From Balanoglossus misakiensis (Eukaryota > Animalia > Hemichordata): a DNA stretch of 64,000 nt. The stretch's first letter is position 1, and each line of letters begins with the position of its first letter. The notes below the pieces were generated by a model that made no database searches, was not told the DNA's origin, and worked only from the letters and a program-made list of their open reading frames with translations. Both the position numbers and the translations under genes were made by a program. Below, piece by piece: positions 1-22,908 of this stretch. The stretch covers positions 15,445,903 through 15,509,902 of the forward strand of contig CM082577.2 of the NCBI GenBank assembly GCA_040954595.2, written 5' to 3'.

Positions 1-83
1 TGCCATTGGAGAGCTCCATTGACTGGTCATTCATACTGTTTTCATTCATTCATTGCGGCATCAATATATTTTATCTATTCTAG

Positions 84-815: not shown

Positions 816-992
816 CTGTAATGGAAATGGAGAAAGTACCTTATATTTTCTGTAAAATAGACATTTAATTGGCAAGCCGTCCTGCATCAATTATTAATTG
901 TGTACATGCACTAAAGCGCCCTCACTGCTGGGTGTGTTGTATGGTCTTTAACCCTGTTTCAAATTAGAGTACTTTCTGCAATTTCAAGACAG
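816..992. mobile_element. Representative 177-bp MITE-like insert present in every 452-bp unit
   Basis: Left end ctgtaatggaaatggagaaagtac vs reverse complement of right end ctgtcttgaaattgcagaaagtac (19/24 identical). Flanked by AT on both sides (tagAT|ctgt...acag|ATctta). Absent from the short units. Confidence 0.75.
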
Positions 993-3900
993 ATCTTACG
1001 TGCCATTGGAGAGCTCCATTGACTGGTCATTCATACTGTTTTCATTCATTCATTGCGGCATCAATATATTTTATCTATTCTAGCCAAAGAGCTTGGCACC
1101 TGTTGAAATGAACTCATCTGCTGTGGGCCAGTTTATTGGTGGCAGTTGAGCTGAGGAGAGCACCTTCCTTCCCGGCACGCCACCAAGTAAAGTTCCACGC
1201 CGCCCACCACAGATGCCAGCATTCATTCATGCGAGTGAGTGTAATTGCAAATTTGCCTATTCTAGATCTGTAATGGAAATGGAGAAAGTACCTTATATTT
1301 TCTGTAAAATAGACATTTAATTGGCAAGCCGTCCTGCATCAATTATTAATTGTGTACATGCACTAAAGCGCCCTCACTGCTGGGTGTGTTGTATGGTCTT
1401 TAACCCTGTTTCAAATTAGAGTACTTTCTGCAATTTCAAGACAGATCTTACGTGCCATTGGAGAGCTCCATTGACTGGTCATTCATACTGTTTTCATTCA
1501 TTCATTGCGGCATCAATATATTTTATCTATTCTAGCCAAAGAGCTTGGCACCTGTTGAAATGAACTCATCTGCTGTGGGCCAGTTTATTGGTGGCAGTTG
1601 AGCTGAGGAGAGCACCTTCCTTCCCGGCACGCCACCAAGTAAAGTTCCACGCCGCCCACCACAGATGCCAGCATTCATTCATGCGAGTGAGTGTAATTGC
1701 AAATTTGCCTATTCTAGATCTGTAATGGAAATGGAGAAAGTACCTTATATTTTCTGTAAAATAGACATTTAATTGGCAAGCCGTCCTGCATCAATTATTA
1801 ATTGTGTACATGCACTAAAGCGCCCTCACTGCTGGGTGTGTTGTATGGTCTTTAACCCTGTTTCAAATTAGAGTACTTTCTGCAATTTCAAGACAGATCT
1901 TACGTGCCATTGGAGAGCTCCATTGACTGGTCATTCATACTGTTTTCATTCATTCATTGCGGCATCAATATATTTTATCTATTCTAGCCAAAGAGCTTGG
2001 CACCTGTTGAAATGAACTCATCTGCTGTGGGCCAGTTTATTGGTGGCAGTTGAGCTGAGGAGAGCACCTTCCTTCCCGGCACGCCACCAAGTAAAGTTCC
2101 ACGCCGCCCACCACAGATGCCAGCATTCATTCATGCGAGTGAGTGTAATTGCAAATTTGCCTATTCTAGATCTGTAATGGAAATGGAGAAAGTACCTTAT
2201 ATTTTCTGTAAAATAGACATTTAATTGGCAAGCCGTCCTGCATCAATTATGAATTGTGTACATGCACTAAAGCGCCCTCACTGCTGGGTGTGTTGTATGG
2301 TCTTTAACCCTGTTTCAAATTAGAGTACTTTCTGCAATTTCAAGACAGATCTTACGTGCCATTGGAGAGCTCCATTGACTGGTCATTCATACTGTTTTCA
2401 TTCATTCATTGCGGCATCAATATATTTTATCTATTCTAGCCAAAGAGCTTGGCACCTGTTGAAATGAACTCATCTGCTGTGGGCCAGTTTATTGGTGGCA
2501 GTTGAGCTGAGAAGAGCACCTTCCTTCCCGGCACGCCACCAAGTAAAGTTCCACGCCGCCCACCACAGATGCCAGCATTCATTCATGCGAGTGAGTGTAA
2601 TTGCAAATTTGCCTATTCTAGATCTGTAATGGAAATGGAGAAAGTACCTTATATTTTCTGTAAAATAGACATTTAATTGGCAAGCCGTCCTGCATCAATT
2701 ATGAATTGTGTACATGCACTAAAGCGCCCTCACTGCTGGGTGTGTTGTATGGTCTTTAACCCTGTTTCAAATTAGAGTACTTTCTGCAATTTCAAGACAG
2801 ATCTTACGTGCCATTGGAGAGCTCCATTGACTGGTCATTCATACTGTTTTCATTCATTCATTGCGGCATCAATATATTTTATCTATTCTAGCCAAAGAGC
2901 TTGGCACCTGTTGAAATGAACTCATCTGCTGTGGGCCAGTTTATTGGTGGCAGTTGAGCTGAGCAGAGCACCTTCCTTCCCGGCACGCCACCAAGTAAAG
3001 TTCCACGCCGCCCACCACAGATGCCAGCATTCATTCATGCGAGTGAGTGTAATTGCAAATTTGCCTATTCTAGATCTGTAATGGAAATGGAGAAAGTACC
3101 TTATATTTTCTGTAAAATAGACATTTAATTGGCAAGCCGTCCTGCATCAATTATGAATTGTGTACATGCACTAAAGCGCCCTCACTGCTGGGTGTGTTGT
3201 ATGGTCTTTAACCCTGTTTCAAATTAGAGTACTTTCTGCAATTTCAAGACAGATCTTACGTGCCATTGGAGAGCTCCATTGACTGGTCATTCATACTGTT
3301 TTCATTCATTCATTGCGGCATCAATATATTTTATCTATTCTAGCCAAAGAGCTTGGCACCTGTTGAAATGAACTCATCTGCTGTGGGCCAGTTTATTGGT
3401 GGCAGTTGAGCTGAGAAGAGCACCTTCCTTCCCGGCACGCCACCAAGTAAAGTTCCACGCCGCCCACCACAGATGCCAGCATTCATTCATGCGAGTGAGT
3501 GTAATTGCAAATTTGCCTATTCTAGATCTGTAATGGAAATGGAGAAAGTACCTTATATTTTCTGTAAAATAGACATTTAATTGGCAAGCCGTCCTGCATC
3601 AATTATGAATTGTGTACATGCACTAAAGCGCCCTCACTGCTGGGTGTGTTGTATGGTCTTTAACCCTGTTTCAAATTAGAGTACTTTCTGCAATTTCAAG
3701 ACAGATCTTACGTGCCATTGGAGAGCTCCATTGACTGGTCATTCATACTGTTTTCATTCATTCATTGCGGCATCAATATATTTTATCTATTCTAGCCAAA
3801 GAGCTTGGCACCTGTTGAAATGAACTCATCTGCTGTGGGCCAGTTTATTGGTGGCAGTTGAGCTGAGGAGAGCACCTTCCTTCCCGGCACGCCACCAAGT

Positions 3901-4237
3901 AAAGTTCCACGCCGCCCACCACAGATGCCAGCATTCATTCATGCGAGTGAGTGTAATTGCAAATTTGCCTATTCTAGATCTGTAATGGAAATGGAGAAAG
4001 TACCTTATATTTTCTGTAAAATAGACATTTAATTGGCAAGCCGTCCTGCATCAATTATTAATTGTGTACATGCACTAAAGCGCCCTCACTGCTGGGTGTG
4101 TTGTATGGTCTTTAACCCTGTTTCAAATTAGAGTACTTTCTGCAATTTCAAGACAGATCTTACGTGCCATTGGAGAGCTCCATTGACTGGTCATTCATAC
4201 TGTTTTCATTCATTCATTGCGGCATCAATATATTTTA

Positions 4238-4661
4238 CAGCCGAAATTATGAAAGGTCGCCGATTCAATATGTGATCTAGACGTCCTGTGTGCACTGAAC
4301 ACACGATGTGTTTATCTAACACAAACAACAGAACCTCTCATAAAAGAGATGCGGTATCATTAGACTAATTACAGATGGTAGTCTGGAAACACGCTCCCCC
4401 TCAGAGAGAGTTGTTTACTTGGGTACGATGTCAAAGTTTAATCTCAAAGTGTATACGCTTTATGTTGAGAGTGTACCCAAGTAAACAACTCTCTCTGAGG
4501 GGGAGCGTGTTTCCAGACTACCATCTGTAATTAGTCTAATGATACCGCATCTCTTTTATGAGAGGTTCTGTTGTTTGTGTTAGATAAACACATCGTGTGT
4601 TCAGTGCACACAGGACGTCTAGATCACATATTGAATCGGCGACCTTTCATAATTTCGGCTG
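4238..4661. mobile_element. 424-bp MITE with 189-bp TIRs and TA target-site duplication (Tc1/mariner-type signature)
   Basis: 4238-4426 is the reverse complement of 4473-4661 around a 46-bp spacer. Termini are CAG...CTG. The empty site tatttTAtctattc is visible in all other units, and TA is duplicated at 4236-4237 and 4662-4663. Confidence 0.95.
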
Positions 4662-4776
4662 TATCTATTCTAGCCAAAGAGCTTGGCACCTGTTGAAATG
4701 AACTCATCTGCTGTGGGCCAGTTTATTGGTGGCAGTTGAGCTGAGGAGAGCACCTTCCTTCCCGGCACGCCACCAA

Positions 4777-6582
4777 GTACAGTTCCACGTGCATTCCTGG
4801 CCCTGGTTTTATTTATGTTTACAGACAATATTGCATTTTTGTACAAGTATTTTAATCAACTATAAATTTTGAATGTGTCATTTACCTGAACCGGTCATGT
4901 TGACCAGAATGATACATTTCTGCCTTCACTCACCCTATAAATATGTGATTGAGACATAGGTCATTTGCATAAGCTAACATACCAGAAAGTAAGCATATCT
5001 GTTGTTTTCCCTGTGTCACTGCCATCAAAGTAAAAATTAGACGTTGTGTAGAGCAAACTCCAATTTTTTGTTCTCAATAAACATGGATGAATTACATAGA
5101 ATGTGTTTGTTGTTTACAGTCTTTAAATGACACATTAGATTATGCACTTTACAAAACGTTTCTGAGAAACAAGTGACTAACTAGTTTCTTTCCACTGTGG
5201 CCAACGTGGTTCACTGTTTGTGTCAGAATCTCTCTGTTTTGCAAGGATTTTGAAATCATAGTGGTGACATGCATAGTGAAAATCAGCTACTTTCAAATGT
5301 CCGTCATGTTCATGCTGTAATTGAATTTTCAAAGCTGGGCTGGCGTGTTTTTTCTTATTTACATAAGTATCACACTTTATACATGTATCTTCATGGGGTT
5401 TTTTGAGTCCCGTATTTAGGTCCTCTCTCACAATTTTACGAAATATCGTATAACTGACAGTTGTTCTTCCCAGAAGAGATTGGTTGGTTATGAACTCTCG
5501 GTGTAACTGCGATATACTGTGGGCCGGCGCCAGGTACGGTTTAAATCGAGGATTCCTGCAGTAGTGAGATTCTACAATTCTGTGCCTGCGTACGTGTTCA
5601 GTGATATCAGTCAGCAAATTTGGATTGAGTTTCCGACGATGCCCTTTGTGTCGGCCCCTTGCATCTGGCATCAGACCAGTAAAGTTCCATGTGCATTCCT
5701 GGCCCTGGTTTTATTTATGTTTACAGACAATATTGCATTTTTGTACAAGTATTTTAATCAACTATAAATTTTGAATGTGTCATTTACCTGAACCGGTCAT
5801 GTTGACCAGAATGATACATTTCTGCCTTCACTCACCCTATAAATATGTGATTGAGACATAGGTCATTTGCATAAGCTAACATACCAGAAAGTAAGCATAT
5901 CTGATGTTTTCCCTGTGTCACTGCCATCAAAGTAAAAATTAGACGTTGTGTAGAGCAAACTCCAATTTTTTGTTCTCAATAAACATGGATGAATTACATA
6001 GAATGTGTTTGTTGTTTACAGTCTTTAAATGACACATTAGATTATGCACTTTACAAAACGTTTCTGAGAAACAAGTGACTAACTAGTTTCTTTCCACTGT
6101 GGCCAACGTGGTTCACTGTTTGTGTCAGAATCTCTCTGTTTTGCAAGGATTTTGAAATCATAGTGGTGACATGCATAGTGAAAATCAGCTACTTTCAAAT
6201 GTCCGTCATGTTCATGCTGTAATTGAATTTTCAAAGCTGGGCTGGCGTGTTTTTTCTTATTTACATAAGTATCACACTTTATACATGTATCTTCATGGGG
6301 TTTTCTGAGTCCCGTATTTAGGTCCTCTCTCACAATTTTACGAAATATCGTATAACTGACAGTTGTTCTTCCCAGAAGAGATTGGTTGGTTATGAACTCT
6401 CGGTGTAACTGCGATATACTGTGGTCCGGCGCCAGGTACGGTTTAAATCGAGGATTCCTGCAGTAGTGAGATTCTACAATTCTGTGCCTGCGTACGTGTT
6501 CAGTGATATCAGTCAGCAAATTTGGATTGAGTTTCCGACGATGCCCTTTGTGTCGGCCCCTTGCATCTGGCATCAGACCAGT
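4777..6582. repeat. 902-bp tandem duplication of the 3' half and 3' flank of the minus-strand gene
   Basis: 4777-5680 matches 5679-6582 with a few substitutions. The two ORF stops at 5177 and 6079 are 902 bp apart. Confidence 0.95.
5177..5680 (-). pseudogene. 5'-truncated duplicate of the N-terminal transposase-half gene (164 aa from an internal Met)
   Basis: Identical to the last 164 aa of 6079-7035 except PDH>PAH and LRK>LKK. It has no own promoter or N-terminus. Confidence 0.8.
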
Positions 6583-7035
6583 TGAACAGTGCATCATTTT
6601 GCTTAGAACGGTTCTAGTCCGCCTCTCACTAATGCCAAATAATTTCAGGAATGCATTTTTGCAGACAGTAACCGTTTCACCGCCTTCATTCACCAGGTGA
6701 TAACGAACCGATTTCTTGTGTGACTTCATCTGCATATCCATCAGTTTGTAGAGCATCAAGTTCTGTTCATTATACACGCGACCATCAAAATATTTTCTCG
6801 TGGTGCCTAAAACATGCGTACTCCCAAGCTTCCGCAGACAATTCCCTTGAACGCAGGCGCATTCCAAGGAAAGACTGTCAATATCTGGAAAAGGGCGATT
6901 TTTCCTTGGTTTTTGTCTCGGACACGTCTTTTTAGAATTCCTACGTGGCTTGTTGGCTCGAGCTGACAGTTCGGTTCTGCGTTGCTGCCACACAGGAATG
7001 GGTTCCCACGCATAAGCAACTCCCCGGCAGGCCAT
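6079..7035 (-). CDS. Sola1-like transposase N-terminal (Cys/His-rich DNA-binding) half, ~318 aa, no catalytic domain
   Basis: Motifs CxCxxxxC, VCKxAFLxLFGISxxR, DxRGxH, ESHYxR...YL, VSYxxFxKI, PxxDTCxxCD and HxxxA, which normally lie upstream of the DDD core in one polypeptide. ATG at 7035 (accATGG). Minus-strand AATAAA near 5710-5715. Confidence 0.8.
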   Translation of the reverse strand: MACRGVAYAWEPIPVWQQRRTELSARANKPRRNSKKTCPRQKPRKNRPFPDIDSLSLECACVQGNCLRKLGSTHVLGTTRKYFDGRVYNEQNLMLYKLMDMQMKSHKKSVRYHLVNEGGETVTVCKNAFLKLFGISERRTRTVLSKMMHCSTGLMPDARGRHKGHRRKLNPNLLTDITEHVRRHRIVESHYCRNPRFKPYLAPDHSISQLHREFITNQSLLGRTTVSYTIFRKIVREDLNTGLRKPHEDTCIKCDTYVNKKKHASPALKIQLQHEHDGHLKVADFHYACHHYDFKILAKQRDSDTNSEPRWPQWKETS

Positions 7036-7082
7036 GGTCACAGCTGAAGTATTTGTTCAAGTACTGACTGACTAAACGCGGC

Positions 7083-8216
7083 ATGGAACAAACGAACGAA
7101 CGACTTCACGTTCGGAAAAAAAATCGTTGCGAGCTGTTGGGTGCATGCCTCTATAGTTGTCGGCAACCGTTCTTTTTTATTGCTAAACAATGCTGTCAGA
7201 GCATGGAAGGTGTGGTGGAAAACGAACAGAGGTTTTGTACGACCAACGATTGGATGGTGCTACATATGGACTTCCACAAGTCATTGCCGGTTCCTAAACT
7301 CAGCTCTGAAGACTTTTACTTTAAATCGAAATTGCAAATGAAGCTCCTTGGAATTTACAACGGGACAACGGAAAAGATGCATTGTTATGTATGGACAGAG
7401 CTCGATAGCAGAAAGTCTCCCGATGAAGTTATTACCTGTCTAAATCACTTTTTTTATAACTCGGGTGTGACCAGCAGACATGCAGTTATTTACAGCGACA
7501 ACTGCCGTGCCGAATTCAAGTGTGGGAAGTTAATGTTTTACTATGACTATCTGTTACGAAAGGGCGTGTTTCGACGAATTGACTATAAAACTCTTGTGGC
7601 TGGACACACGTACTCCACCTGTGACCGAGTTTTTGCGTCCATTGAAAGGCATGCAAGTCGTTTCCAGAGTATAGAGACACCTCACGATTGGACATCTGTG
7701 ATTCGAGGATCTTCTCTGAATGGGAACATTGGAGTTACGGAGATGACTCACAGAGACTTTTTCAATTATTCTGATTTCCTGAAAAATGAGTACGTTGTGC
7801 GTTATGCAGATACAAACAATGTAACTTTTTACTACCAAGCCATGCACTATTTTAATTTTGGAGAAGGAGAAAGGCTTGATACCGACGGCAACCTCAGAAC
7901 ATTTAGTCATGCAGATAAAGTTTGGGTGAGAACATCTCTAGATCCAAGCGAGACCCCGATTGTAGTCGACTTTAGAAAGAAGAAGCAGAACCGGCGTTTA
8001 CAAGATTGTACGCTGAACAAACTTTATCAGGAACGTCGACCACTGGCGAGCAAAGTTTGGCGGGATCTTCAGAGTTTAGCCAAAAATTACCTGTCTCCGG
8101 AGGCAATAGAATTTTATAGGAATCTACCGCTTCAGGAGAGTAGTGGCACCTCTGCAGACCCGTACGCCTTTCATGATGATGACGACGACGATGATGATGA
8201 TATGGGCGGTGGTTGA
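7083..8216 (+). CDS. Sola1-like DDD transposase catalytic half, 377 aa (alternative start at 7203), acidic C-terminal tail
   Basis: MDFHKSLPVP (D63), FYFKSKL, CYVWTE...EVITCL, YSDNC (D139), GHTYSTCDRVFASIE (D181), P..W..VI, K..DL..L...L...A.EFY. AATAAA overlaps the stop at 8216-8221. Confidence 0.85.
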   Translation: MEQTNERLHVRKKNRCELLGACLYSCRQPFFFIAKQCCQSMEGVVENEQRFCTTNDWMVLHMDFHKSLPVPKLSSEDFYFKSKLQMKLLGIYNGTTEKMHCYVWTELDSRKSPDEVITCLNHFFYNSGVTSRHAVIYSDNCRAEFKCGKLMFYYDYLLRKGVFRRIDYKTLVAGHTYSTCDRVFASIERHASRFQSIETPHDWTSVIRGSSLNGNIGVTEMTHRDFFNYSDFLKNEYVVRYADTNNVTFYYQAMHYFNFGEGERLDTDGNLRTFSHADKVWVRTSLDPSETPIVVDFRKKKQNRRLQDCTLNKLYQERRPLASKVWRDLQSLAKNYLSPEAIEFYRNLPLQESSGTSADPYAFHDDDDDDDDDMGGG

Positions 8217-8376
8217 ATAAACTGTCCTTTTCATGACGACAGTGATTTTGGATATTTGATGTGCGTGCACAGTTTATATGTAATATTTTCACACGAACGA
8301 GTTTTGACTGAATTTGATTAAAGAATGTACTCGATAATTAACAAATGTGCTGAATCGTGGTTATTATGTTGTTAAT

Positions 8377-8417
8377 TTTTGTTTGTTTGTTTGTTTGTTT
8401 GTTTGTTTGTTTGTTTG
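8377..8417. repeat. (GTTT)n microsatellite
   Basis: About 10 tandem tttg/gttt units; repeated in cassette copy 2 near 24203-24243. Confidence 0.9.
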
Positions 8418-8550
8418 TAAACAATTTCCGTTCATTCAACTGGCTACAAAGTTGGATTTTTGTACTGGGAAGCGATAAACTCGCACATCAAAACCGGGGA
8501 GACTCGATCATTTTTCCCTGCAGGTAGCCTGAAAAGCACCCGGGCAGAGA

Positions 8551-8624
8551 TTACGTCATATATGGTCCACTTTAATACGAAATTATGCAAATGTGACATT
8601 TCACGGAAACGGCGTATATAAAAG
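8551..8624 (+). promoter_or_regulatory. Putative Pol II promoter of the wH-SET gene
   Basis: CRE-like TTACGTCA 8551-8558, octamer ATGCAAAT 8585-8592 and TATATAAAAG 8615-8624, about 90 bp upstream of aacATGG at 8716. Confidence 0.55.
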
Positions 8625-8715
8625 CGACCCTGGGCTATTGTTCGGAATGCGTCATCGACGAGAGAGTGACTGATAATTCTTCTACCTCGAGTCAACCATT
8701 CTGTATATACTGAAC

Positions 8716-10056
8716 ATGGCTAGCTGGCGCAGGAAGAGACAAGGCAATGTGCGGTCTGTAATCAACGAACGGCACCGCTCAGTTCAGTGTCCCTTTCTTC
8801 AAAAGTGGATCGGTGAGCAATTGGTATTTTCAGGTCGTTCAGAGGATGAAGTCCAGTCCAGTACTGTATTTGAGAGCTACAAATGTTGGGTTGAAAACTA
8901 TTCGTCGGCGGACAATCAAGTAATGATTATGGTTACTAAAGCTCGATTTTTCAAGGTGAGAATGATCGCATTTTTCTTTCCCCCCCCCCCCTCCCTCCCT
9001 CCCTCCCTCCCCCAAGGGACTCGTTTTCTGTCTCTTTTAAACCTGTAACTTAACGAAAAGGAAGTTTTTCACATATCTCTTCGTTGACACTATAGCAATT
9101 TGGAGCGCGGATGCTTCAAGAGAAGAGCGTTACCAAATCAAAGTCGGCCGGGGTTAATATTTATAGAGGTGTTCGTCTGAAAGCTGGTTCGCGAAGAATC
9201 TCAACGGGGAAACCTGAGCACAGTGTACTTCAGACCAGGGCAAGGGCATTTCTTGATGACGCCAGCGTGACCGTTCCGATCGAGGTAAGAATGGTGTTTT
9301 GTTTGGACTAGGACAATAGAACGTTGCAATGAGTGTGTCAATGGGTGTCCAAGTGCAAACGTGGTCTGCTTCTGTCCACAAATGCCATTAATTTTTGGCA
9401 GGATTTATAAAATTGTCAATGAAGAATACAAAAATGAAAAACAACAGTTAATAGCAAACTGGTAGGATTGCAAGGGCTTGTAAAACGGTACACACTGTAC
9501 CAGGAAGTTTGCAACACTAATGAAGAATGTATATGATATATTTAGGTGAGAACTGTTCGCGATCGCCGGGACGCAGGACGGTGCGCGTTTTCGACGAGGG
9601 ATATTCAAGCCTGGGACGTCGTCTGCGAATACCGGGGCACGGTTATTAGCGTTGAAGAAGCTAGTCGGCGTGATGAGCTTTACAGGGCAGAGGGGAAACG
9701 ACCACGCATGTTCCATCTCTACATTGGAAAGAGACACGTTGTGTGAGTGTATCACTTAGTCGAATATATGGTCATATATTGCAAAGCATCTGTCGAAATA
9801 GAAAACGTAATATTGTCTATATTTTCCTCATTAACGCAGCATTGACGGATACGATGTCCCAGCCGGTGAAGAAAATTTAGCAGGCCTAATAAATCACAGT
9901 CAGCAGAACGCCAACTTGGTACCGGTTCGGATCGGAGAGCGCCTGGTTTTCTTTGCAACCAGGAATCTTTGTCAGGGAGTAGAGCTTTTGTATGATTACG
10001 GTGACGGGGGTGAAGAGGATTTCTTCAGTGGTTCTCAAACTTTTCCTGAAAATTAA
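8716..10056 (+). CDS. Spliced 280-aa protein: winged-helix-like domain plus PR-Set7/SETD8-like SET domain. Exons 8716-8955, 9096-9284, 9546-9742, 9840-10056
   Basis: Three GT-AG introns (AAG|gtgaga..tatag, GAG|gtaaga..tttag, GT|gtgagt..cgcag) give an open 843-nt frame. SET motifs: GRCAFSTRDI..WDVVCEYRG, IDG, GLINHS..NANL, ELLYDYG. N-terminus W..E......V.S..VFESYKCW....RFFK......IYRGVRLK resembles D5-primase C-terminal/RFX winged helix. Confidence 0.85.
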
Positions 10057-10962
10057 GGCATTAACACATCAACGCTTCGGGGTGTCGTAACGGCGGCGCG
10101 GCGGGGGGGGGGGGGGGGACGTGAAAATGTTTGTATCAGGAACAAAATTCCCGTGCAAATCACCTTGATCCGGGTGGGTGGACTATTCGCGACAAATGTT
10201 GAAATCATACAAAGCATTTTACTTAATTAACCCATTTTTTTCATTTATTTGTTTACAGTTTACAACGTCATAGAGAAGTTGAACTAGAGACTGGATCAGC
10301 GTGGGTGACACCATAGTACACCAATGTTTTCTTCAGTTTGATTCAATTGTAATTTAAAACTGAGATTGCCTAACGCTTTCCCAGATTTTTTTAACCACTG
10401 AGAAACTGTGGGTTTTTTTCTGGGTTTTGGTGCGAGGTGATCTCAGTCAGTGGTGTTAATTTAATTAATCATTTTCTTTTCCTATTTACGTCGACTGAAA
10501 TGTATTTTGATAGGTGATAGTCATACCATAAAAAAAATCTTACGGCGCGACTGCCAAAATGTACATTTATTTGTCCGTTCCAAGTTATTTTGTGTATGTG
10601 TGATGGGTGCCGGTGACTGTGCAGGGTTGATTTCCCTAGAGCGACTGTTATATTCGTTTTCCAACGATGATGAATTTACATGTTATTTGCTTGGCATTTT
10701 GACGCAGAGACACTTCTGAAAACACAAACCTATTAATTATGCCACGGGTGTAAATTGATCACATTAAAAGAGGCTTTAGACGTTTGCCGCGAGCTCCTGG
10801 TGGGCAGAATCTTGTCAGCCCAAATTTGACTATAAGTACATAGCCAATGATGTGACGCTCTCCCACATCCTTCGCCGCGCCTTTTCGCTGATTTACAGCA
10901 TCTTGCGTAAACACTGTCATTTGATCTTGCTTGGCAGAAGTCAACTTGCTCTATACTACATT

Positions 10963-11328
10963 ATGGCGGCCAAGCTCAACTGCATATCAGATAATGCCAA
11001 GGAGCGTTTGAGAGGCATCCTCGCCAGAAGGAGTCGCGTTTCCGGTGACTGTGTGCTCTGGACGGGTGCAGCTTGTCGAAACGGCTATGGCTCTATTACG
11101 TTCAGAGATGAGAACACTCTAACCGCCTATGTCCATCACATTGCACTCCTAATTAACGGAGTGCAATTGGTGGGCAGGCGGTTAGAGTGTTCTCATCTTT
11201 GCAACGAAAAGCTATGCATCCGCCCAGAGCACATTGTCCAGGAAACGCGACTCCTAAACATTTCACGAAAGACGTGCTTTAAATCCCCAAAAGGGGAGTG
11301 TCACCACGATCCCAGGTGCCTAAGGTGA
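10963..11328 (+). CDS. His-Cys-box / His-Me finger endonuclease (I-PpoI-like zinc-binding loop), 121 aa
   Basis: CVLWTG....GYG...YVHH, SHLCNEKLCIRPEHIVQE....N.SRKTC.....C.H.P.C. First ATG (attATGG) at 10963 within the listed 10852-11328 ORF. Confidence 0.85.
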   Translation: MAAKLNCISDNAKERLRGILARRSRVSGDCVLWTGAACRNGYGSITFRDENTLTAYVHHIALLINGVQLVGRRLECSHLCNEKLCIRPEHIVQETRLLNISRKTCFKSPKGECHHDPRCLR

Positions 11329-11580
11329 GTAATCCTCTTCTCATTTGATATGTATTGTGTGACCCTGCAGTTGAAACGCTTTCATCAATAATTTGCGGCG
11401 CGTGGGTAATCTCGGTGTTATTGACAATGCAGCCGGCCCAAACATTTTTAAATTAACACTGTTTCTGACTGTATTAACGAAATGTCCAATTTGCAAGTAG
11501 CCTATAGACAACCCTTTTGAATGAGTTTTGTCTCGTTGAGATTTTATACATAAGGAACAATCTAGATTTATTTTAGAAGA

Positions 11581-11994
11581 CACTGTTCTTTTAAAACAGC
11601 TAGCATAATACAGCTAAATTTCGGAATTTCCGGACAATTTTCGGAATTCCTTTTAAATTTGAGAAATTTTTCATCAGATATAAGTGTTACTATTTATTGG
11701 ACATGTTTTTATCATTGTTTACTTTTTAAGGTCATTCTCACCCCCCCCCCCCCAAAAAAAGCCGCTTTAGGCTTCATGTTCAGTAAAAAATCTGGAAAGT
11801 TCAGCTGAATTTTACACTGATCACACATTTTTGGGAAGGTCTGGCGCAAAATAAAGGATGACAAATGTAAATCTAATGTCACATTTGTAAACCTCTAAGT
11901 ATTGTACACTCATTCTATTAAGTATATGCAAATAGTACGGATAATTTTTTCGGAATGTGGAATTCCGAAATTAGTTCGGAACGTGTTAGCAGTG
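11581..11994. mobile_element. Degenerate TIR element with CACTG...CAGTG ends and AAGA flanking direct repeat
   Basis: aaga|CACTG at 11581 and CAGTG|aaga at 11994. Subterminal ttccggacaattttcggaattcc (~11628-11650) pairs with ggaattccgaaattagttcggaa (~11959-11981). Confidence 0.45.
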
Positions 11995-12236
11995 AAGAGA
12001 TCACCACTGAGGGTTGGAAGGCCTTGCCAGAAATTAACGCGTAAAGTACGCCCTCACAGGCCATGTAAACAAGGTCAAATAAGGCCGTCTGGCAAACGAA
12101 TGATTAATTCAACGCGCCATTTGAGCCGAGCTGAGTTGGTCTGAGTTGCGTATCACACAGACTTAGGCTGAATGTCAGTGGAGTAACCAGTCCGTTTTAG
12201 ATTTACCAATGATGTGAATTTAATTTCTTCACCCAG

Positions 12237-12640
12237 AAAAACAGAACACAACTTGTCTGCAACATGATGCTGGAGGTGACACATGACAGAGAAGTGGATC
12301 CGCGTTGTCAACACAGATGCCAGCATTCAAAAGGGGAGTGCCACCTGCTAAAATCAACTCATCTGCTGTTGGCCCATTTTACCTGTGGCAACTGTTCAGA
12401 GGAGACAACGTTTATTCCGTGCAAGCCAACACGCAATGTTGGGGTCTACCTGTCAACACAGATGCAAGCATTCATGTGAGTGAGTATCAGGACTGACCTT
12501 GTATTTGCTGAATAATTCATAATGCCTATTTTAGAATTCTTAGAGGCATTTGGAGTTCATTGCCTGGTCAACCAAACTACACCCCTTAACAGCTGAAACA
12601 AAATGCGTATTGTGTTCATTCATTCATTGCATCAATATAT
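12237..12640 (+). repeat. Diverged copy of the array unit (exon-like 12237-12479 plus intron-like remainder)
   Basis: Shares aactcatctgctgt, acagatgc.agcattcat, gagtgagt, tgcctatt.tagaattctta, cattg.ctggtca and ttcattcattcattgc.atcaatatat with the array unit, in the same order. Confidence 0.9.
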
Positions 12641-12947
12641 ATAGGCAACATGAGTATCAAGTAGCACTATTTGTTTACGATTGTATTCATGAAAACTTCC
12701 CACTAACAATTCCACAGTTAATATTGAACACATTTATCCAACAAGGTCAAAAGAAAAAGGGAATCTTCTGGTTCCAAAATACGCCACAAATGTGGGTCAA
12801 CATACAGTGAAATATTATGGTGCTCAAATATGCAACATATCAAATCTGTCTCATCAAAGTCATGCTTTAAAAAAGAATTGAAAAGGTATTATTTATCCAT
12901 TTGACTGCTGTATTTTCAGAAGGAAAACAAACTGAATTTGGTTTTTC

Positions 12948-15900
12948 AAGTACCTTATATTTTCTGTAAAATAGACATTTAATTGGCAAGCCGTCCTGCA
13001 TCAATTATTAATTGTGTACATGCACTAAAGCGCCCTCACTGCTGGGTGTGTTGTATGGTCTTTAACCCTGTTTCAAATTAGAGTACTTTCTGCAATTTCA
13101 AGACAGATCTTACGTGCCATTGGAGAGCTCCATTGACTGGTCATTCATACTGTTTTCATTCATTCATTGCGGCATCAATATATTTTATCTATTCTAGCCA
13201 AAGAGCTTGGCACCTGTTGAAATGAACTCATCTGCTGTGGGCCAGTTTATTGGTGGCAGTTGAGCTGAGGAGAGCACCTTCCTTCCCGGCACGCCACCAA
13301 GTAAAGTTCCACGCCGCCCACCACAGATGCCAGCATTCATTCATGCGAGTGAGTGTAATTGCAAATTTGCCTATTCTAGATCTGTAATGGAAATGGAGAA
13401 AGTACCTTATATTTTCTGTAAAATAGACATTTAATTGGCAAGCCGTCCTGCATCAATTATTAATTGTGTACATGCACTAAAGCGCCCTCACTGCTGGGTG
13501 TGTTGTATGGTCTTTAACCCTGTTTCAAATTAGAGTACTTTCTGCAATTTCAAGACAGATCTTACGTGCCATTGGAGAGCTCCATTGACTGGTCATTCAT
13601 ACTGTTTTCATTCATTCATTGCGGCATCAATATATTTTATCTATTCTAGCCAAAGAGCTTGGCACCTGTTGAAATGAACTCATCTGCTGTGGGCCAGTTT
13701 ATTGGTGGCAGTTGAGCTGAGGAGAGCACCTTCCTTCCCGGCACGCCACCAAGTAAAGTTCCACGCCGCCCACCACAGATGCCAGCATTCATTCATGCGA
13801 GTGAGTGTAATTGCAAATTTGCCTATTCTAGATCTGTAATGGAAATGGAGAAAGTACCTTATATTTTCTGTAAAATAGACATTTAATTGGCAAGCCGTCC
13901 TGCATCAATTATTAATTGTGTACATGCACTAAAGCGCCCTCACTGCTGGGTGTGTTGTATGGTCTTTAACCCTGTTTCAAATTAGAGTACTTTCTGCAAT
14001 TTCAAGACAGATCTTACGTGCCATTGGAGAGCTCCATTGACTGGTCATTCATACTGTTTTCATTCATTCATTGCGGCATCAATATATTTTATCTATTCTA
14101 GCCAAAGAGCTTGGCACCTGTTGAAATGAACTCATCTGCTGTGGGCCAGTTTATTGGTGGCAGTTGAGCTGAGGAGAGCACCTTCCTTCCCGGCACGCCA
14201 CCAAGTAAAGTTCCACGCCGCCCACCACAGATGCCAGCATTCATTCATGCGAGTGAGTGTAATTGCAAATTTGCCTATTCTAGATCTGTAATGGAAATGG
14301 AGAAAGTACCTTATATTTTCTGTAAAATAGACATTTAATTGGCAAGCCGTCCTGCATCAATTATTAATTGTGTACATGCACTAAAGCGCCCTCACTGCTG
14401 GGTGTGTTGTATGGTCTTTAACCCTGTTTCAAATTAGAGTACTTTCTGCAATTTCAAGACAGATCTTACGTGCCATTGGAGAGCTCCATTGACTGGTCAT
14501 TCATACTGTTTTCATTCATTCATTGCGGCATCAATATATTTTATCTATTCTAGCCAAAGAGCTTGGCACCTGTTGAAATGAACTCATCTGCTGTGGGCCA
14601 GTTTATTGGTGGCAGTTGAGCTGAGGAGAGCACCTTCCTTCCCGGCACGCCACCAAGTAAAGTTCCACGCCGCCCACCACAGATGCCAGCATTCATTCAT
14701 GCGAGTGAGTGTAATTGCAAATTTGCCTATTCTAGATTCTTACGTGCCATTGGAGAGCTCCATTGACTGGTCATTCATACTGTTTTCATTCATTCATTGC
14801 GGCATCAATATATTTTATCTATTCTAGCCAAAGAGCTTGGCACCTGTTGAAATGAACTCATCTGCTGTGGGCCAGTTTATTGGTGGCAGTTGAGCTGAGC
14901 AGAGCACCTTCCTTCCCGGCACGCCACCAAGTAAAGTTCCACGCCGCCCACCACAGATGCCAGCATTCATTCATGCGAGTGAGTGTAATTGCAAATTTGC
15001 CTATTCTAGAATCTTACGTGCCATTGGAGAGCTCCATTGACTGGTCATTCATACTGTTTTCATTCATTCATTGCGGCATCAATATATTTTATCTATTCTA
15101 GCCAAAGAGCTTGGCACCTGTTGAAATGAACTCATCTGCTGTGGGCCAGTTTATTGGTGGCAGTTGAGCTGAGGAGAGCACCTTCCTTCCCGGCACGCCA
15201 CCAAGTAAAGTTCCACGCCGCCCACCACAGATGCCAGCATTCATTCATGCGAGTGAGTGTAATTGCAAATTTGCCTATTCTAGATCTGTAATGGAAATGG
15301 AGAAAGTACCTTATATTTTCTGTAAAATAGACATTTAATTGGCAAGCCGTCCTGCATCAATTATTAATTGTGTACATGCACTAAAGCGCCCTCACTGCTG
15401 GGTGTGTTGTATGGTCTTTAACCCTGTTTCAAATTAGAGTACTTTCTGCAATTTCAAGACAGATCTTACGTGCCATTGGAGAGCTCCATTGACTGGTCAT
15501 TCATACTGTTTTCATTCATTCATTGCGGCATCAATATATTTTATCTATTCTAGCCAAAGAGCTTGGCACCTGTTGAAATGAACTCATCTGCTGTGGGCCA
15601 GTTTATTGGTGGCAGTTGAGCTGAGGAGAGCACCTTCCTTCCCGGCACGCCACCAAGTAAAGTTCCACGCCGCCCACCACAGATGCCAGCATTCATTCAT
15701 GCGAGTGAGTGTAATTGCAAATTTGCCTATTCTAGATCTGTAATGGAAATGGAGAAAGTACCTTATATTTTCTGTAAAATAGACATTTAATTGGCAAGCC
15801 GTCCTGCATCAATTATTAATTGTGTACATGCACTAAAGCGCCCTCACTGCTGGGTGTGTTGTATGGTCTTTAACCCTGTTTCAAATTAGAGTACTTTCTG

Positions 15901-18900
15901 CAATTTCAAGACAGATCTTACGTGCCATTGGAGAGCTCCATTGACTGGTCATTCATACTGTTTTCATTCATTCATTGCGGCATCAATATATTTTATCTAT
16001 TCTAGCCAAAGAGCTTGGCACCTGTTGAAATGAACTCATCTGCTGTGGGCCAGTTTATTGGTGGCAGTTGAGCTGAGGAGAGCACCTTCCTTCCCGGCAC
16101 GCCACCAAGTAAAGTTCCACGCCGCCCACCACAGATGCCAGCATTCATTCATGCGAGTGAGTGTAATTGCAAATTTGCCTATTCTAGATCTGTAATGGAA
16201 ATGGAGAAAGTACCTTATATTTTCTGTAAAATAGACATTTAATTGGCAAGCCGTCCTGCATCAATTATTAATTGTGTACATGCACTAAAGCGCCCTCACT
16301 GCTGGGTGTGTTGTATGGTCTTTAACCCTGTTTCAAATTAGAGTACTTTCTGCAATTTCAAGACAGATCTTACGTGCCATTGGAGAGCTCCATTGACTGG
16401 TCATTCATACTGTTTTCATTCATTCATTGCGGCATCAATATATTTTATCTATTCTAGCCAAAGAGCTTGGCACCTGTTGAAATGAACTCATCTGCTGTGG
16501 GCCAGTTTATTGGTGGCAGTTGAGCTGAGGAGAGCACCTTCCTTCCCGGCACGCCACCAAGTAAAGTTCCACGCCGCCCACCACAGATGCCAGCATTCAT
16601 TCATGCGAGTGAGTGTAATTGCAAATTTGCCTATTCTAGATCTGTAATGGAAATGGAGAAAGTACCTTATATTTTCTGTAAAATAGACATTTAATTGGCA
16701 AGCCGTCCTGCATCAATTATTAATTGTGTACATGCACTAAAGCGCCCTCACTGCTGGGTGTGTTGTATGGTCTTTAACCCTGTTTCAAATTAGAGTACTT
16801 TCTGCAATTTCAAGACAGATCTTACGTGCCATTGGAGAGCTCCATTGACTGGTCATTCATACTGTTTTCATTCATTCATTGCGGCATCAATATATTTTAT
16901 CTATTCTAGCCAAAGAGCTTGGCACCTGTTGAAATGAACTCATCTGCTGTGGGCCAGTTTATTGGTGGCAGTTGAGCTGAGGAGAGCACCTTCCTTCCCG
17001 GCACGCCACCAAGTAAAGTTCCACGCCGCCCACCACAGATGCCAGCATTCATTCATGCGAGTGAGTGTAATTGCAAATTTGCCTATTCTAGATCTGTAAT
17101 GGAAATGGAGAAAGTACCTTATATTTTCTGTAAAATAGACATTTAATTGGCAAGCCGTCCTGCATCAATTATTAATTGTGTACATGCACTAAAGCGCCCT
17201 CACTGCTGGGTGTGTTGTATGGTCTTTAACCCTGTTTCAAATTAGAGTACTTTCTGCAATTTCAAGACAGATCTTACGTGCCATTGGAGAGCTCCATTGA
17301 CTGGTCATTCATACTGTTTTCATTCATTCATTGCGGCATCAATATATTTTATCTATTCTAGCCAAAGAGCTTGGCACCTGTTGAAATGAACTCATCTGCT
17401 GTGGGCCAGTTTATTGGTGGCAGTTGAGCTGAGGAGAGCACCTTCCTTCCCGGCACGCCACCAAGTAAAGTTCCACGCCGCCCACCACAGATGCCAGCAT
17501 TCATTCATGCGAGTGAGTGTAATTGCAAATTTGCCTATTCTAGATCTGTAATGGAAATGGAGAAAGTACCTTATATTTTCTGTAAAATAGACATTTAATT
17601 GGCAAGCCGTCCTGCATCAATTATTAATTGTGTACATGCACTAAAGCGCCCTCACTGCTGGGTGTGTTGTATGGTCTTTAACCCTGTTTCAAATTAGAGT
17701 ACTTTCTGCAATTTCAAGACAGATCTTACGTGCCATTGGAGAGCTCCATTGACTGGTCATTCATACTGTTTTCATTCATTCATTGCGGCATCAATATATT
17801 TTATCTATTCTAGCCAAAGAGCTTGGCACCTGTTGAAATGAACTCATCTGCTGTGGGCCAGTTTATTGGTGGCAGTTGAGCTGAGGAGAGCACCTTCCTT
17901 CCCGGCACGCCACCAAGTAAAGTTCCACGCCGCCCACCACAGATGCCAGCATTCATTCATGCGAGTGAGTGTAATTGCAAATTTGCCTATTCTAGATCTG
18001 TAATGGAAATGGAGAAAGTACCTTATATTTTCTGTAAAATAGACATTTAATTGGCAAGCCGTCCTGCATCAATTATGAATTGTGTACATGCACTAAAGCG
18101 CCCTCACTGCTGGGTGTGTTGTATGGTCTTTAACCCTGTTTCAAATTAGAGTACTTTCTGCAATTTCAAGACAGATCTTACGTGCCATTGGAGAGCTCCA
18201 TTGACTGGTCATTCATACTGTTTTCATTCATTCATTGCGGCATCAATATATTTTATCTATTCTAGCCAAAGAGCTTGGCACCTGTTGAAATGAACTCATC
18301 TGCTGTGGGCCAGTTTATTGGTGGCAGTTGAGCTGAGAAGAGCACCTTCCTTCCCGGCACGCCACCAAGTAAAGTTCCACGCCGCCCACCACAGATGCCA
18401 GCATTCATTCATGCGAGTGAGTGTAATTGCAAATTTGCCTATTCTAGATCTGTAATGGAAATGGAGAAAGTACCTTATATTTTCTGTAAAATAGACATTT
18501 AATTGGCAAGCCGTCCTGCATCAATTATGAATTGTGTACATGCACTAAAGCGCCCTCACTGCTGGGTGTGTTGTATGGTCTTTAACCCTGTTTCAAATTA
18601 GAGTACTTTCTGCAATTTCAAGACAGATCTTACGTGCCATTGGAGAGCTCCATTGACTGGTCATTCATACTGTTTTCATTCATTCATTGCGGCATCAATA
18701 TATTTTATCTATTCTAGCCAAAGAGCTTGGCACCTGTTGAAATGAACTCATCTGCTGTGGGCCAGTTTATTGGTGGCAGTTGAGCTGAGCAGAGCACCTT
18801 CCTTCCCGGCACGCCACCAAGTAAAGTTCCACGCCGCCCACCACAGATGCCAGCATTCATTCATGCGAGTGAGTGTAATTGCAAATTTGCCTATTCTAGA

Positions 18901-20615
18901 TCTGTAATGGAAATGGAGAAAGTACCTTATATTTTCTGTAAAATAGACATTTAATTGGCAAGCCGTCCTGCATCAATTATGAATTGTGTACATGCACTAA
19001 AGCGCCCTCACTGCTGGGTGTGTTGTATGGTCTTTAACCCTGTTTCAAATTAGAGTACTTTCTGCAATTTCAAGACAGATCTTACGTGCCATTGGAGAGC
19101 TCCATTGACTGGTCATTCATACTGTTTTCATTCATTCATTGCGGCATCAATATATTTTATCTATTCTAGCCAAAGAGCTTGGCACCTGTTGAAATGAACT
19201 CATCTGCTGTGGGCCAGTTTATTGGTGGCAGTTGAGCTGAGAAGAGCACCTTCCTTCCCGGCACGCCACCAAGTAAAGTTCCACGCCGCCCACCACAGAT
19301 GCCAGCATTCATTCATGCGAGTGAGTGTAATTGCAAATTTGCCTATTCTAGATCTGTAATGGAAATGGAGAAAGTACCTTATATTTTCTGTAAAATAGAC
19401 ATTTAATTGGCAAGCCGTCCTGCATCAATTATGAATTGTGTACATGCACTAAAGCGCCCTCACTGCTGGGTGTGTTGTATGGTCTTTAACCCTGTTTCAA
19501 ATTAGAGTACTTTCTGCAATTTCAAGACAGATCTTACGTGCCATTGGAGAGCTCCATTGACTGGTCATTCATACTGTTTTCATTCATTCATTGCGGCATC
19601 AATATATTTTATCTATTCTAGCCAAAGAGCTTGGCACCTGTTGAAATGAACTCATCTGCTGTGGGCCAGTTTATTGGTGGCAGTTGAGCTGAGGAGAGCA
19701 CCTTCCTTCCCGGCACGCCACCAAGTAAAGTTCCACGCCGCCCACCACAGATGCCAGCATTCATTCATGCGAGTGAGTGTAATTGCAAATTTGCCTATTC
19801 TAGATCTGTAATGGAAATGGAGAAAGTACCTTATATTTTCTGTAAAATAGACATTTAATTGGCAAGCCGTCCTGCATCAATTATTAATTGTGTACATGCA
19901 CTAAAGCGCCCTCACTGCTGGGTGTGTTGTATGGTCTTTAACCCTGTTTCAAATTAGAGTACTTTCTGCAATTTCAAGACAGATCTTACGTGCCATTGGA
20001 GAGCTCCATTGACTGGTCATTCATACTGTTTTCATTCATTCATTGCGGCATCAATATATTTTACAGCCGAAATTATGAAAGGTCGCCGATTCAATATGTG
20101 ATCTAGACGTCCTGTGTGCACTGAACACACGATGTGTTTATCTAACACAAACAACAGAACCTCTCATAAAAGAGATGCGGTATCATTAGACTAATTACAG
20201 ATGGTAGTCTGGAAACACGCTCCCCCTCAGAGAGAGTTGTTTACTTGGGTACGATGTCAAAGTTTAATCTCAAAGTGTATACGCTTTATGTTGAGAGTGT
20301 ACCCAAGTAAACAACTCTCTCTGAGGGGGAGCGTGTTTCCAGACTACCATCTGTAATTAGTCTAATGATACCGCATCTCTTTTATGAGAGGTTCTGTTGT
20401 TTGTGTTAGATAAACACATCGTGTGTTCAGTGCACACAGGACGTCTAGATCACATATTGAATCGGCGACCTTTCATAATTTCGGCTGTATCTATTCTAGC
20501 CAAAGAGCTTGGCACCTGTTGAAATGAACTCATCTGCTGTGGGCCAGTTTATTGGTGGCAGTTGAGCTGAGGAGAGCACCTTCCTTCCCGGCACGCCACC
20601 AAGTACAGTTCCACG
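12948..20615 (+). repeat. Tandem array segment 2
   Basis: Begins inside the 177-bp insert (aagtaccttat...). Mostly 452-bp units, with two 274-bp units near 14470-15020 and the MITE at 20064-20487. Confidence 0.98.
20064..20487. mobile_element. 424-bp TA-flanked MITE, copy 2
   Basis: Same sequence and same insertion site as 4238-4661, offset 15826. Confidence 0.95.
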
Positions 20616-21002
20616 TGCATTCCTGGCCCTGGTTTTATTTATGTTTACAGACAATATTGCATTTTTGTACAAGTATTTTAATCAACTATAAATTTTGAAT
20701 GTGTCATTTACCTGAACCGGTCATGTTGACCAGAATGATACATTTCTGCCTTCACTCACCCTATAAATATGTGATTGAGACATAGGTCATTTGCATAAGC
20801 TAACATACCAGAAAGTAAGCATATCTGTTGTTTTCCCTGTGTCACTGCCATCAAAGTAAAAATTAGACGTTGTGTAGAGCAAACTCCAATTTTTTGTTCT
20901 CAATAAACATGGATGAATTACATAGAATGTGTTTGTTGTTTACAGTCTTTAAATGACACATTAGATTATGCACTTTACAAAACGTTTCTGAGAAACAAGT
21001 GA

Positions 21003-21506
21003 CTAACTAGTTTCTTTCCACTGTGGCCAACGTGGTTCACTGTTTGTGTCAGAATCTCTCTGTTTTGCAAGGATTTTGAAATCATAGTGGTGACATGCAT
21101 AGTGAAAATCAGCTACTTTCAAATGTCCGTCATGTTCATGCTGTAATTGAATTTTCAAAGCTGGGCTGGCGTGTTTTTTCTTATTTACATAAGTATCACA
21201 CTTTATACATGTATCTTCATGGGGTTTTTTGAGTCCCGTATTTAGGTCCTCTCTCACAATTTTACGAAATATCGTATAACTGACAGTTGTTCTTCCCAGA
21301 AGAGATTGGTTGGTTATGAACTCTCGGTGTAACTGCGATATACTGTGGGCCGGCGCCAGGTACGGTTTAAATCGAGGATTCCTGCAGTAGTGAGATTCTA
21401 CAATTCTGTGCCTGCGTACGTGTTCAGTGATATCAGTCAGCAAATTTGGATTGAGTTTCCGACGATGCCCTTTGTGTCGGCCCCTTGCATCTGGCATCAG
21501 ACCAGT
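21003..21506 (-). pseudogene. Truncated duplicate of the N-terminal transposase-half gene, copy 2
   Basis: Same as 5177-5680. Confidence 0.8.
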
Positions 21507-21904
21507 AAAGTTCCATGTGCATTCCTGGCCCTGGTTTTATTTATGTTTACAGACAATATTGCATTTTTGTACAAGTATTTTAATCAACTATAAATTTTGA
21601 ATGTGTCATTTACCTGAACCGGTCATGTTGACCAGAATGATACATTTCTGCCTTCACTCACCCTATAAATATGTGATTGAGACATAGGTCATTTGCATAA
21701 GCTAACATACCAGAAAGTAAGCATATCTGATGTTTTCCCTGTGTCACTGCCATCAAAGTAAAAATTAGACGTTGTGTAGAGCAAACTCCAATTTTTTGTT
21801 CTCAATAAACATGGATGAATTACATAGAATGTGTTTGTTGTTTACAGTCTTTAAATGACACATTAGATTATGCACTTTACAAAACGTTTCTGAGAAACAA
21901 GTGA

Positions 21905-22861
21905 CTAACTAGTTTCTTTCCACTGTGGCCAACGTGGTTCACTGTTTGTGTCAGAATCTCTCTGTTTTGCAAGGATTTTGAAATCATAGTGGTGACATGC
22001 ATAGTGAAAATCAGCTACTTTCAAATGTCCGTCATGTTCATGCTGTAATTGAATTTTCAAAGCTGGGCTGGCGTGTTTTTTCTTATTTACATAAGTATCA
22101 CACTTTATACATGTATCTTCATGGGGTTTTCTGAGTCCCGTATTTAGGTCCTCTCTCACAATTTTACGAAATATCGTATAACTGACAGTTGTTCTTCCCA
22201 GAAGAGATTGGTTGGTTATGAACTCTCGGTGTAACTGCGATATACTGTGGTCCGGCGCCAGGTACGGTTTAAATCGAGGATTCCTGCAGTAGTGAGATTC
22301 TACAATTCTGTGCCTGCGTACGTGTTCAGTGATATCAGTCAGCAAATTTGGATTGAGTTTCCGACGATGCCCTTTGTGTCGGCCCCTTGCATCTGGCATC
22401 AGACCAGTTGAACAGTGCATCATTTTGCTTAGAACGGTTCTAGTCCGCCTCTCACTAATGCCAAATAATTTCAGGAATGCATTTTTGCAGACAGTAACCG
22501 TTTCACCGCCTTCATTCACCAGGTGATAACGAACCGATTTCTTGTGTGACTTCATCTGCATATCCATCAGTTTGTAGAGCATCAAGTTCTGTTCATTATA
22601 CACGCGACCATCAAAATATTTTCTCGTGGTGCCTAAAACATGCGTACTCCCAAGCTTCCGCAGACAATTCCCTTGAACGCAGGCGCATTCCAAGGAAAGA
22701 CTGTCAATATCTGGAAAAGGGCGATTTTTCCTTGGTTTTTGTCTCGGACACGTCTTTTTAGAATTCCTACGTGGCTTGTTGGCTCGAGCTGACAGTTCGG
22801 TTCTGCGTTGCTGCCACACAGGAATGGGTTCCCACGCATAAGCAACTCCCCGGCAGGCCAT
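21905..22861 (-). CDS. Sola1-like transposase N-terminal half, copy 2
   Basis: Identical translation to 6079-7035. Confidence 0.8.
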   Translation of the reverse strand: MACRGVAYAWEPIPVWQQRRTELSARANKPRRNSKKTCPRQKPRKNRPFPDIDSLSLECACVQGNCLRKLGSTHVLGTTRKYFDGRVYNEQNLMLYKLMDMQMKSHKKSVRYHLVNEGGETVTVCKNAFLKLFGISERRTRTVLSKMMHCSTGLMPDARGRHKGHRRKLNPNLLTDITEHVRRHRIVESHYCRNPRFKPYLAPDHSISQLHREFITNQSLLGRTTVSYTIFRKIVREDLNTGLRKPHEDTCIKCDTYVNKKKHASPALKIQLQHEHDGHLKVADFHYACHHYDFKILAKQRDSDTNSEPRWPQWKETS

Positions 22862-22908
22862 GGTCACAGCTGAAGTATTTGTTCAAGTACTGACTGACTA
22901 AACGCGGC

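Follow-up and report, generated by a model that had tools for sequence, protein, structure and literature searches.

The stretch of DNA considered here, 64,000 nucleotides (nt) of the hemichordate Balanoglossus misakiensis (GenBank assembly GCA_040954595.2, contig CM082577.2, positions 15,445,903–15,509,902; hereafter the window), is a satellite array broken up twice by one 8.2-kb cassette, with array on both sides of the cassette. The cassette encodes two putative halves of a DDD transposase, a SET-domain protein and a small His-Cys box nuclease, and much of the nuclease coding sequence is an inverted repeat whose RNA is predicted to fold into a long hairpin. Both the combination of genes and the nuclease coded in a hairpin are real and unusual. 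The structured RNA belongs to the nuclease gene rather than to the array, and the claim of an initial annotation that the array is itself a bank of hairpin RNAs falls. The favored explanation, with a probability of about 0.45, is a single KolobokP-like selfish element in which the nuclease would drive unequal exchange and the sense-strand hairpin would limit nuclease output.

A nuclease gene that pairs with itself

The nuclease gene (10963–11328, plus strand) predicts a protein of 121 amino acids (aa) that matches zf-His_Me_endon in Pfam (E 6.7e-13) and aligns with I-PpoI (E 0.002). Every residue named as conserved in the KolobokP report (H98/H110/N119, S97, E114 and eight zinc ligands; PMC9587614) aligns here, as H78, H90, N99, S77 and E94 together with the zinc ligands C30, C80, C85, H90, C105, C113, H115 and C119. 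The SHLC motif, the catalytic His and Asn and both zinc sites also align with those of I-PpoI; unlike I-PpoI, the present nuclease is free-standing, with no group I intron found in the window by Rfam scan, and its coding sequence is self-complementary.

Within that coding sequence, 227 nt on the plus strand (11029–11255) match their own reverse complement, with arms at 11029–11149 and 11158–11255 and a loop of 8 nt. The arms align over 97 columns (87 Watson–Crick pairs, 6 G-U, 1 A-C and 3 other), the stem holds an uninterrupted helix of 26 bp, and 17 nt just ahead of and inside the GYG motif are looped out. The predicted energy is −154.5 kcal/mol against −69.2 ± 4.1 in 60 shuffles (z −21), and that of the minus strand is −140.8 (z −13). 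Two hundred synonymous recodings fold at −65.2 ± 6.0 (lowest −81.5), and 2000 recodings held in the same register form 46.8 ± 4.1 pairs with a maximum of 62 against the 87 Watson–Crick pairs observed, so the pairing is not forced by the protein sequence. Columns with a degenerate side are paired in 59 of 63 cases. In a scan of the cassette in 200-nt segments the strongest fold (−91) overlaps the repeat and no segment clear of it falls below −56. Four distant HNH loci recovered by a metagenome scan served as folding controls, and none of the four shows such folding (z −1.2 to +0.8). A test for a hidden hairpin from protein sequence alone was powerless (17.8 for the query, at most 17.3 in 25 shuffles and 11.3–24.7 in 20 relatives).

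The arms are not duplicates at the protein level, and both retain catalytic and zinc-binding residues: the left codes for C30-x-x-W33-x-G35, GYG and H58, the right for SHLC, C85, H90 and E94. Conserved motifs pair with variable stretches opposite, SHLC with DENTLTA and HHIAL with the linker, and the repeat is in this way compatible with an intact active site. An A-to-I editing event at 11138, in the stem beside a bulged C, would turn His59 into Arg, the residue found at this position in 16 of 20 relatives; obligate recoding was rejected because His, Gln, Ile and Lys also occur there.

Those relatives are 20 single-stretch matches (26–38 per cent identity) drawn from the best 150 of the 7697 proteins that a profile-free search returned at E ≤ 0.001. 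Of 20 matches whose records were consulted few are named, among them a Branchiostoma belcheri protein (33 per cent identity) and a nematode His-Cys box protein, and one relative cluster holds UniRef members annotated as 'zinc-binding loop of homing endonuclease'. A word-based search found no relative of the nuclease among 4 candidates, a weak negative, and scans of viral contigs with the four cassette proteins found none. A GTGAGT at 11327 overlaps the nuclease stop codon and is not kept in one paralog; splicing from it into the array would yield an mRNA with many downstream junctions, which would be a substrate for decay.

Hairpin RNAs are known in Drosophila to suppress selfish drivers, from long imperfect inverted repeats related to a potentially harmful gene family. 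It might be proposed that the hairpin gene is a source of small RNAs that silence paralogous nucleases in trans, as a suppressor in a genetic conflict, with the protein frame secondary or vestigial. Several nuclease paralog families of ∼90 per cent identity in the sample, the 26-bp helix and a match of the apical stem to the microRNA precursor mir-301 in Rfam are in keeping with this, but the mir-301 match (E 4.4) lies far under the family threshold, at chance level, and the active-site and zinc-binding residues are complete. A small-RNA source is quite improbable. The Drosophila hairpins are non-coding duplicates, whereas here each arm codes for a different half of a single, intact domain of the enzyme.

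The cassette as a repeated unit fused to its satellite

Positions 541–14637 recur at an offset of +15,826 bp with zero differences, which makes the cassette and ∼16 units a higher-order repeat; the second, identical cassette copy lies at 20616–28773 and array follows to the end of the window. Upstream, an array of 452- and 274-bp units (1–4789, plus strand) ends in an exon-like core cut at its base 116 by the start of the cassette. A segment of 902 bp (4776–5677) is a tandem duplicate, with 5 differences, of 5678–6579, and carries the junction of unit and cassette together with the 3′ part of the gene for the transposase N-terminal half. The junction itself (5678–5700, plus strand) reads GTAAAGTTCCAYG and then TGCATTCC. 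The initial annotation had overlooked the upstream array, the +15,826 repeat, the 902-bp duplication and the inverted repeat in the nuclease gene.

At the right edge of the cassette lie decayed repeat units (12040–12640, plus strand), consisting of an intron-like part (66 per cent identical), a short remnant and an exon core at 12336–12478 (72 per cent identical) with its own donor site. A diverged unit ahead of the array had been described before and is confirmed, at 71 per cent identity over 151 nt (E 2e-14). Homology of the array to sequence inside the cassette, also claimed earlier, holds for these decayed units and does not extend to the cassette genes. The same decayed type builds tandem arrays of its own elsewhere in the sample. 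The 3′ end of the nuclease gene shares 18 nt with the diverged unit (E 0.2), a match set aside for want of support in whole-region alignment (z 0.2), and no homology was seen between the nuclease coding sequence and the unit (z 0.8 and 0.5).

Diverged copies were sought among contigs from two runs of one sample, X1 and X2, which cover 30 of 30 bins of 5700–12940. Such copies were found at SET exon 4, at the nuclease 3′ half and at the decayed units. Summed depth in X1 is ∼690–810 for the main family and 20–157 for minor nuclease paralogs, which suggests many copies of the main family, although depth is not a copy number. The SET 3′ end is joined to position 10496, upstream of the nuclease, in three paralog contig rows, and in one X2 contig the base at which the cassette is joined is again that seen here, although the unit is of a diverged type; this joint has no GATC. 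Joints from 10760 and 11822 to 12297 in X2 coincide with GATC and, as probable ligation products, were left out. Run X3, which has no bearing on expression, gave a single contig with a SET paralog, in which exons 3 and 4 are continuous in frame, and none on the nuclease.

The case for one element is supported by the identical copies, the joins of SET to 10496, the same-base junction and the decayed units of 66–72 per cent identity abutting the nuclease gene. The earlier proposal of a linked selfish module tied to a repeat family stands to this extent, in the fused decayed units, the recurring junction and the linkage of SET and nuclease in paralogs.

The shared junction base of two unit types could also be read as the mark of a target-specific parasite, the unit being a spliced non-coding RNA gene of the host, into which the cassette inserts at a fixed base in the manner of Dada or a homing element while the nuclease cuts empty units. 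A nuclease of the I-PpoI type would suit such a habit, as would the acceptor AG kept in three further unit variants and the donor kept in the 72 per cent unit. The right flank, however, fails to resume at exon base 117, unit-derived sequence beginning instead, in decayed form, within an intron-like part at ∼12040; there is no target duplication (a candidate at 12300 was ruled out, as unit-like sequence reaches further left), and the unit has no Rfam identity. Insertion into a host gene is improbable on this evidence.

The array does not encode hairpin units

Downstream of the cassette the array (12948–20615, plus strand) is built on a non-coding 151-nt core between AG and GTGAGT, with stops in all three frames. 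Among the 126 unit copies of the window, spacers give periods of 452 bp (66), 274 bp (41), 265 bp (9) and 275 bp (5). The splice-site-like boundaries described in the initial annotation are borne out: they are intact in 124 of 126 unit copies, the remaining two being those cut by the cassette. The splice-like acceptor AG is kept in three further unit variants, each in tandem arrays of its own (joints 12640 to 12342/12328), and transcription and splicing of the array is therefore still plausible.

The hairpin structure attributed to the units was not recovered. The 151-nt core folds at −45.6 against −41.8 ± 3.9 in shuffles (z −0.96), not above chance; the best of 184 short segments reaches z −2.5; and of three Rfam matches at E ≤ 5 none lies inside the array. 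A stable, conserved hairpin in each unit, as in a cluster of microRNAs or structured RNAs, was not found. When the two unit families are compared, conservation of the intron blocks (86 per cent of aligned bases, with gaps) is not below that of the core (72 per cent).

The guide-array model, in which hairpin RNAs of the array guide the cassette proteins in cleavage or in marking chromatin, can still point to the preserved splice-like boundaries and to an outer CAUCUG/CAGAUG stem that closes in both unit types in a two-sequence consensus fold. In that fold, however, 1 of 28 predicted pairs is changed on both sides, and the core alone gives the z of chance noted above. The 126 units comprise six exon types that differ by single bases, with no variable spacer; no match of 9 nt or more joins the nuclease hairpin to the exon, and no complementarity of the array to the cassette genes was found. 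His-Cys box nucleases recognize DNA through protein (PMC9587614). Supply of structured or guide RNAs by the array is very improbable.

Two other features of the units may be recorded. A TTAA-centered semi-palindrome of the 452-bp units (e.g. 13453–13467) occurs 63 times, is altered in 8 copies and is absent from 274-bp units. CATT repeats (UCAU clusters in RNA) at the end of the exon and ahead of the acceptor, e.g. at 13328–13345 and 13152–13170, are kept in both unit families and could, by motif type, be splicing-factor or DNA-binding sites. Farther downstream (31194–64000) the array is organized into higher-order repeats that mix 452/274/265/275 units and recur every ∼6–8 kb.

The transposase halves and the SET gene

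Four intact coding units within 6079–11328 had been proposed, and open reading frames, Pfam matches and in-frame GT-AG joins agree. Two of them are head-to-head with starts 167 nt apart: a predicted 318-aa N-terminal half on the minus strand (6079–7035; ATG 7035 in the context ACCATGG, minus-strand AATAAA at 5710–5715) and a predicted 337-aa catalytic half on the plus strand (7203–8216; ATG 7203 in the context AGCATGG, AATAAA at 8216). The catalytic half matches DUF7869 (E 1.1e-14), its only Pfam match above threshold, and no literature on DUF7869 was found. The N-terminal half has no Pfam match; its 30 neighbors in the protein atlas are unnamed clusters (the three listed are eukaryotic, 206–262 aa, with scores of 0.95–0.96), and among named clusters the closest (score 0.85) is a 573-aa group in which 11 per cent of members have DUF7869, a lead only. 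The two are taken here to be one Sola1-like DDD transposase in two pieces, N-terminal and C-terminal, with the break in the linker that precedes the first catalytic strand; the candidate triad D23/D99/D141 and the N-terminal Cys/His motifs are reminiscent of Sola1 proteins. A single-sequence structural model of the catalytic half has a predicted local distance difference test (pLDDT) score of 34, and a fold search of the Protein Data Bank (PDB) gave no match at E ≤ 0.001. Word-based searches found no relative of the catalytic half among 637 candidates and none of the N-terminal half among 573 longer proteins, both weak negatives.

Two separately expressed halves would be in keeping with the strong start contexts, the AATAAA signals and, in some contigs, the loss of 4 nt at 7142, which spares the frame from ATG 7203 and would shift one begun at an earlier ATG, 7083. 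The Sola1 label is plausible. Directly before the catalytic-half ATG, at 7171–7199, stands a tract resembling a 3′ splice site, with pyrimidines, a branch-like motif and AG. Trans-splicing of the halves was considered and rejected, as by eye no phase-compatible donor follows the last homologous helix.

The SET gene (8716–10056, plus strand) predicts 280 aa from exons 8716–8955, 9096–9284, 9546–9742 and 9840–10056, with a TATA box at 8615; GT-AG sites, at boundaries read by eye, connect the four exons in a single frame. Exons 3 and 4 match SET in Pfam (E 1.7e-4 and 1.6e-7), and NHS and YDY motifs are present. The best match of exon 4 is an unnamed SET protein followed by KMT5A (E 8e-4), and that of exon 3 is KMT2C, with KMT5A after it. 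The protein is likely a histone methyltransferase, and the label PR-Set7 given to it earlier is plausible. Its N-terminal ∼110 aa (exons 1–2) resemble a winged helix by eye only; no Pfam or PHROG match supports this, the single-sequence models made for the cassette proteins were of low confidence (pLDDT 34 and 52), and the PDB fold search gave no match at E ≤ 0.001.

Several insertions and tracts accompany these genes. A near-perfect 424-bp palindrome with ends CAG…CTG (4238–4661, and again at 20064–20487) lies in one unit with TA on each side; it looks like a Tc1/mariner-type miniature inverted-repeat transposable element (MITE), is probably a passenger, and causes a sub-threshold Rfam match to MIR7486. 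A second, probable MITE-like insert of dispersed type (11617–11988) has inverted arms of 23 nt, and many contigs diverge at both its ends. Three C/G homopolymer tracts (8969–8998, 10100–10130 and 11721–11753) with similar flanks lie between or within the genes in inverted orientation.

Comparison with described elements

KolobokP (PMC9587614) is among the closest comparisons. Like the cassette, it combines a DDD/E transposase with a small I-PpoI-like His-Cys box nuclease, forms head-to-tail multimers (two identical copies 15,826 bp apart are present here) and has ∼450-bp repeats adjoining its coding part; it is reported from Branchiostoma, the genus of one named nuclease relative. KolobokP has long terminal direct repeats with their own terminal inverted repeats (TIRs) of 11–18 bp and a TTAA target-site duplication (TSD), none of which was found in the cassette, where long satellite arrays without TIRs take their place. 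The transposase here is of DUF7869 type in two head-to-head genes, not of Kolobok type as judged by Pfam alone, and a SET gene is added. The KolobokP nuclease was proposed to induce unequal crossover and multimers, an idea that its authors call untested (PMC9587614), and the word 'hairpin' has 0 occurrences in the main text of that report.

The Sola superfamily has a DDD transposase, a 4-bp TSD and TIRs (PMC10741241). The cassette instead has two open reading frames on opposite strands in place of one, an arrangement of three proteins as cargo, and neither TIRs nor a 4-bp TSD was found. HarbingerS and MuDR elements likewise carry their own SET methyltransferase genes; they belong to other transposase superfamilies, are reported from oomycetes, and a nuclease is not mentioned in the excerpted account (PMC12730594). 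Neither the gene combination nor a self-complementary nuclease coding sequence is described in the literature searched, of which Repbase Reports and most subscription journals formed no part, and a Repbase entry is possible.

Selfish element or accidental assembly

Under the favored reading, and by analogy with the KolobokP model, the nuclease would cut the repeat units or DNA close to them and thereby set off unequal exchange, by which cassette and array would multiply head-to-tail. The inverted repeat would fold the nuclease mRNA into a predicted stem of ∼95 bp, and the DNA-cutting enzyme would likely be kept low, whether by blocked translation or by processing or editing of the duplex. The transposase halves may be translated separately and then reassemble, and the SET protein may mark the element's own chromatin. 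The array would be an amplified by-product and likely a substrate for cutting or recombination, possibly transcribed and spliced, rather than a source of guide RNAs.

It is also conceivable, though less likely, that the cassette is an accidental assembly of a Sola-like transposon broken by inversion and separately derived SET and nuclease genes, passively co-amplified by satellite turnover, with a hairpin that plays no part as RNA and has grown by template-switch correction of a chance quasi-palindrome, held in check by protein constraint alone. The head-to-head halves fit an inversion, no TIRs were found, and the satellite shows higher-order turnover of its own. The family-conserved codons of Trp33 (TGG) and Pro88 (CCA) pair naturally and could seed a palindrome, the two strands differ little in DNA hairpin energy (−89 and −83), and the stem is not clearly kept in paralog fragments. 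Yet none of the four frames is broken, their starts are good and the splice sites in frame, diverged copies again show SET linked to the nuclease and the same unit junction, and G-U outnumbers A-C on the sense strand by 6:1 (p 0.06).

Several points weigh against the reading as a KolobokP-like element. The G-U excess is not significant, a single inversion would leave exactly the same head-to-head geometry, and the whole of the DNA evidence is from a single sample. No inverted repeat joining the cassette ends or unit ends was found, nor were TIRs or a target duplication, although the multimer may have its true outer ends beyond the 64-kb window. The candidate nuclease site, the sole semi-palindrome of the unit, is no commoner than chance predicts (1 observed against 1.4 expected). 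Among the matches listed the transposase frames show no paralog differences. In the stem, paralog signals are mixed and no covariation is shown: 11105 G>A keeps its pair (G-U to A-U), while three other changes (11236 G>A, 11255 T>A and an insertion of 3 nt at 11164) disrupt or weaken pairs unless a compensating change lies beyond what the contigs show, and one paralog type, in a reading of a loose contig end, is apparently short of 5 nt at the SHLC codons. No X1 paralog contig falls on 10940–11107 and several fall on the right arm, a hint that the hairpin was perhaps perfected only in the main family. In favor of an intact protein, the listed differences among nuclease paralogs (R48K, V92I, L98Q, one silent, K107R, D116E and a one-codon insertion), six substitutions and one insertion in all, are silent, single-residue or in frame.

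Implications

A broader formulation is a doubtful but substantial possibility: a class of animal selfish elements without terminal repeats that combines a two-piece DDD transposase, a DNA-binding histone methyltransferase and a homing-type nuclease whose catalytic coding sequence has coevolved to form its own double-stranded RNA, either silencing or activated by editing, and that builds satellite as its multimers spread. The locus bears on whether a DDD transposase can function when its halves are encoded separately, and it allows a direct test of whether transposon-borne His-Cys nucleases make multimers and satellites by induced unequal exchange. A 227-nt stretch that codes for both halves of the active-site domain of a nuclease and pairs with itself at 93 of 97 columns is under an unusual double constraint. 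If the broader formulation is true, a single sequence would be both the gene of an enzyme and its switch, and if the pairing has been selected, it would be a compact natural means of carrying a toxic nuclease.

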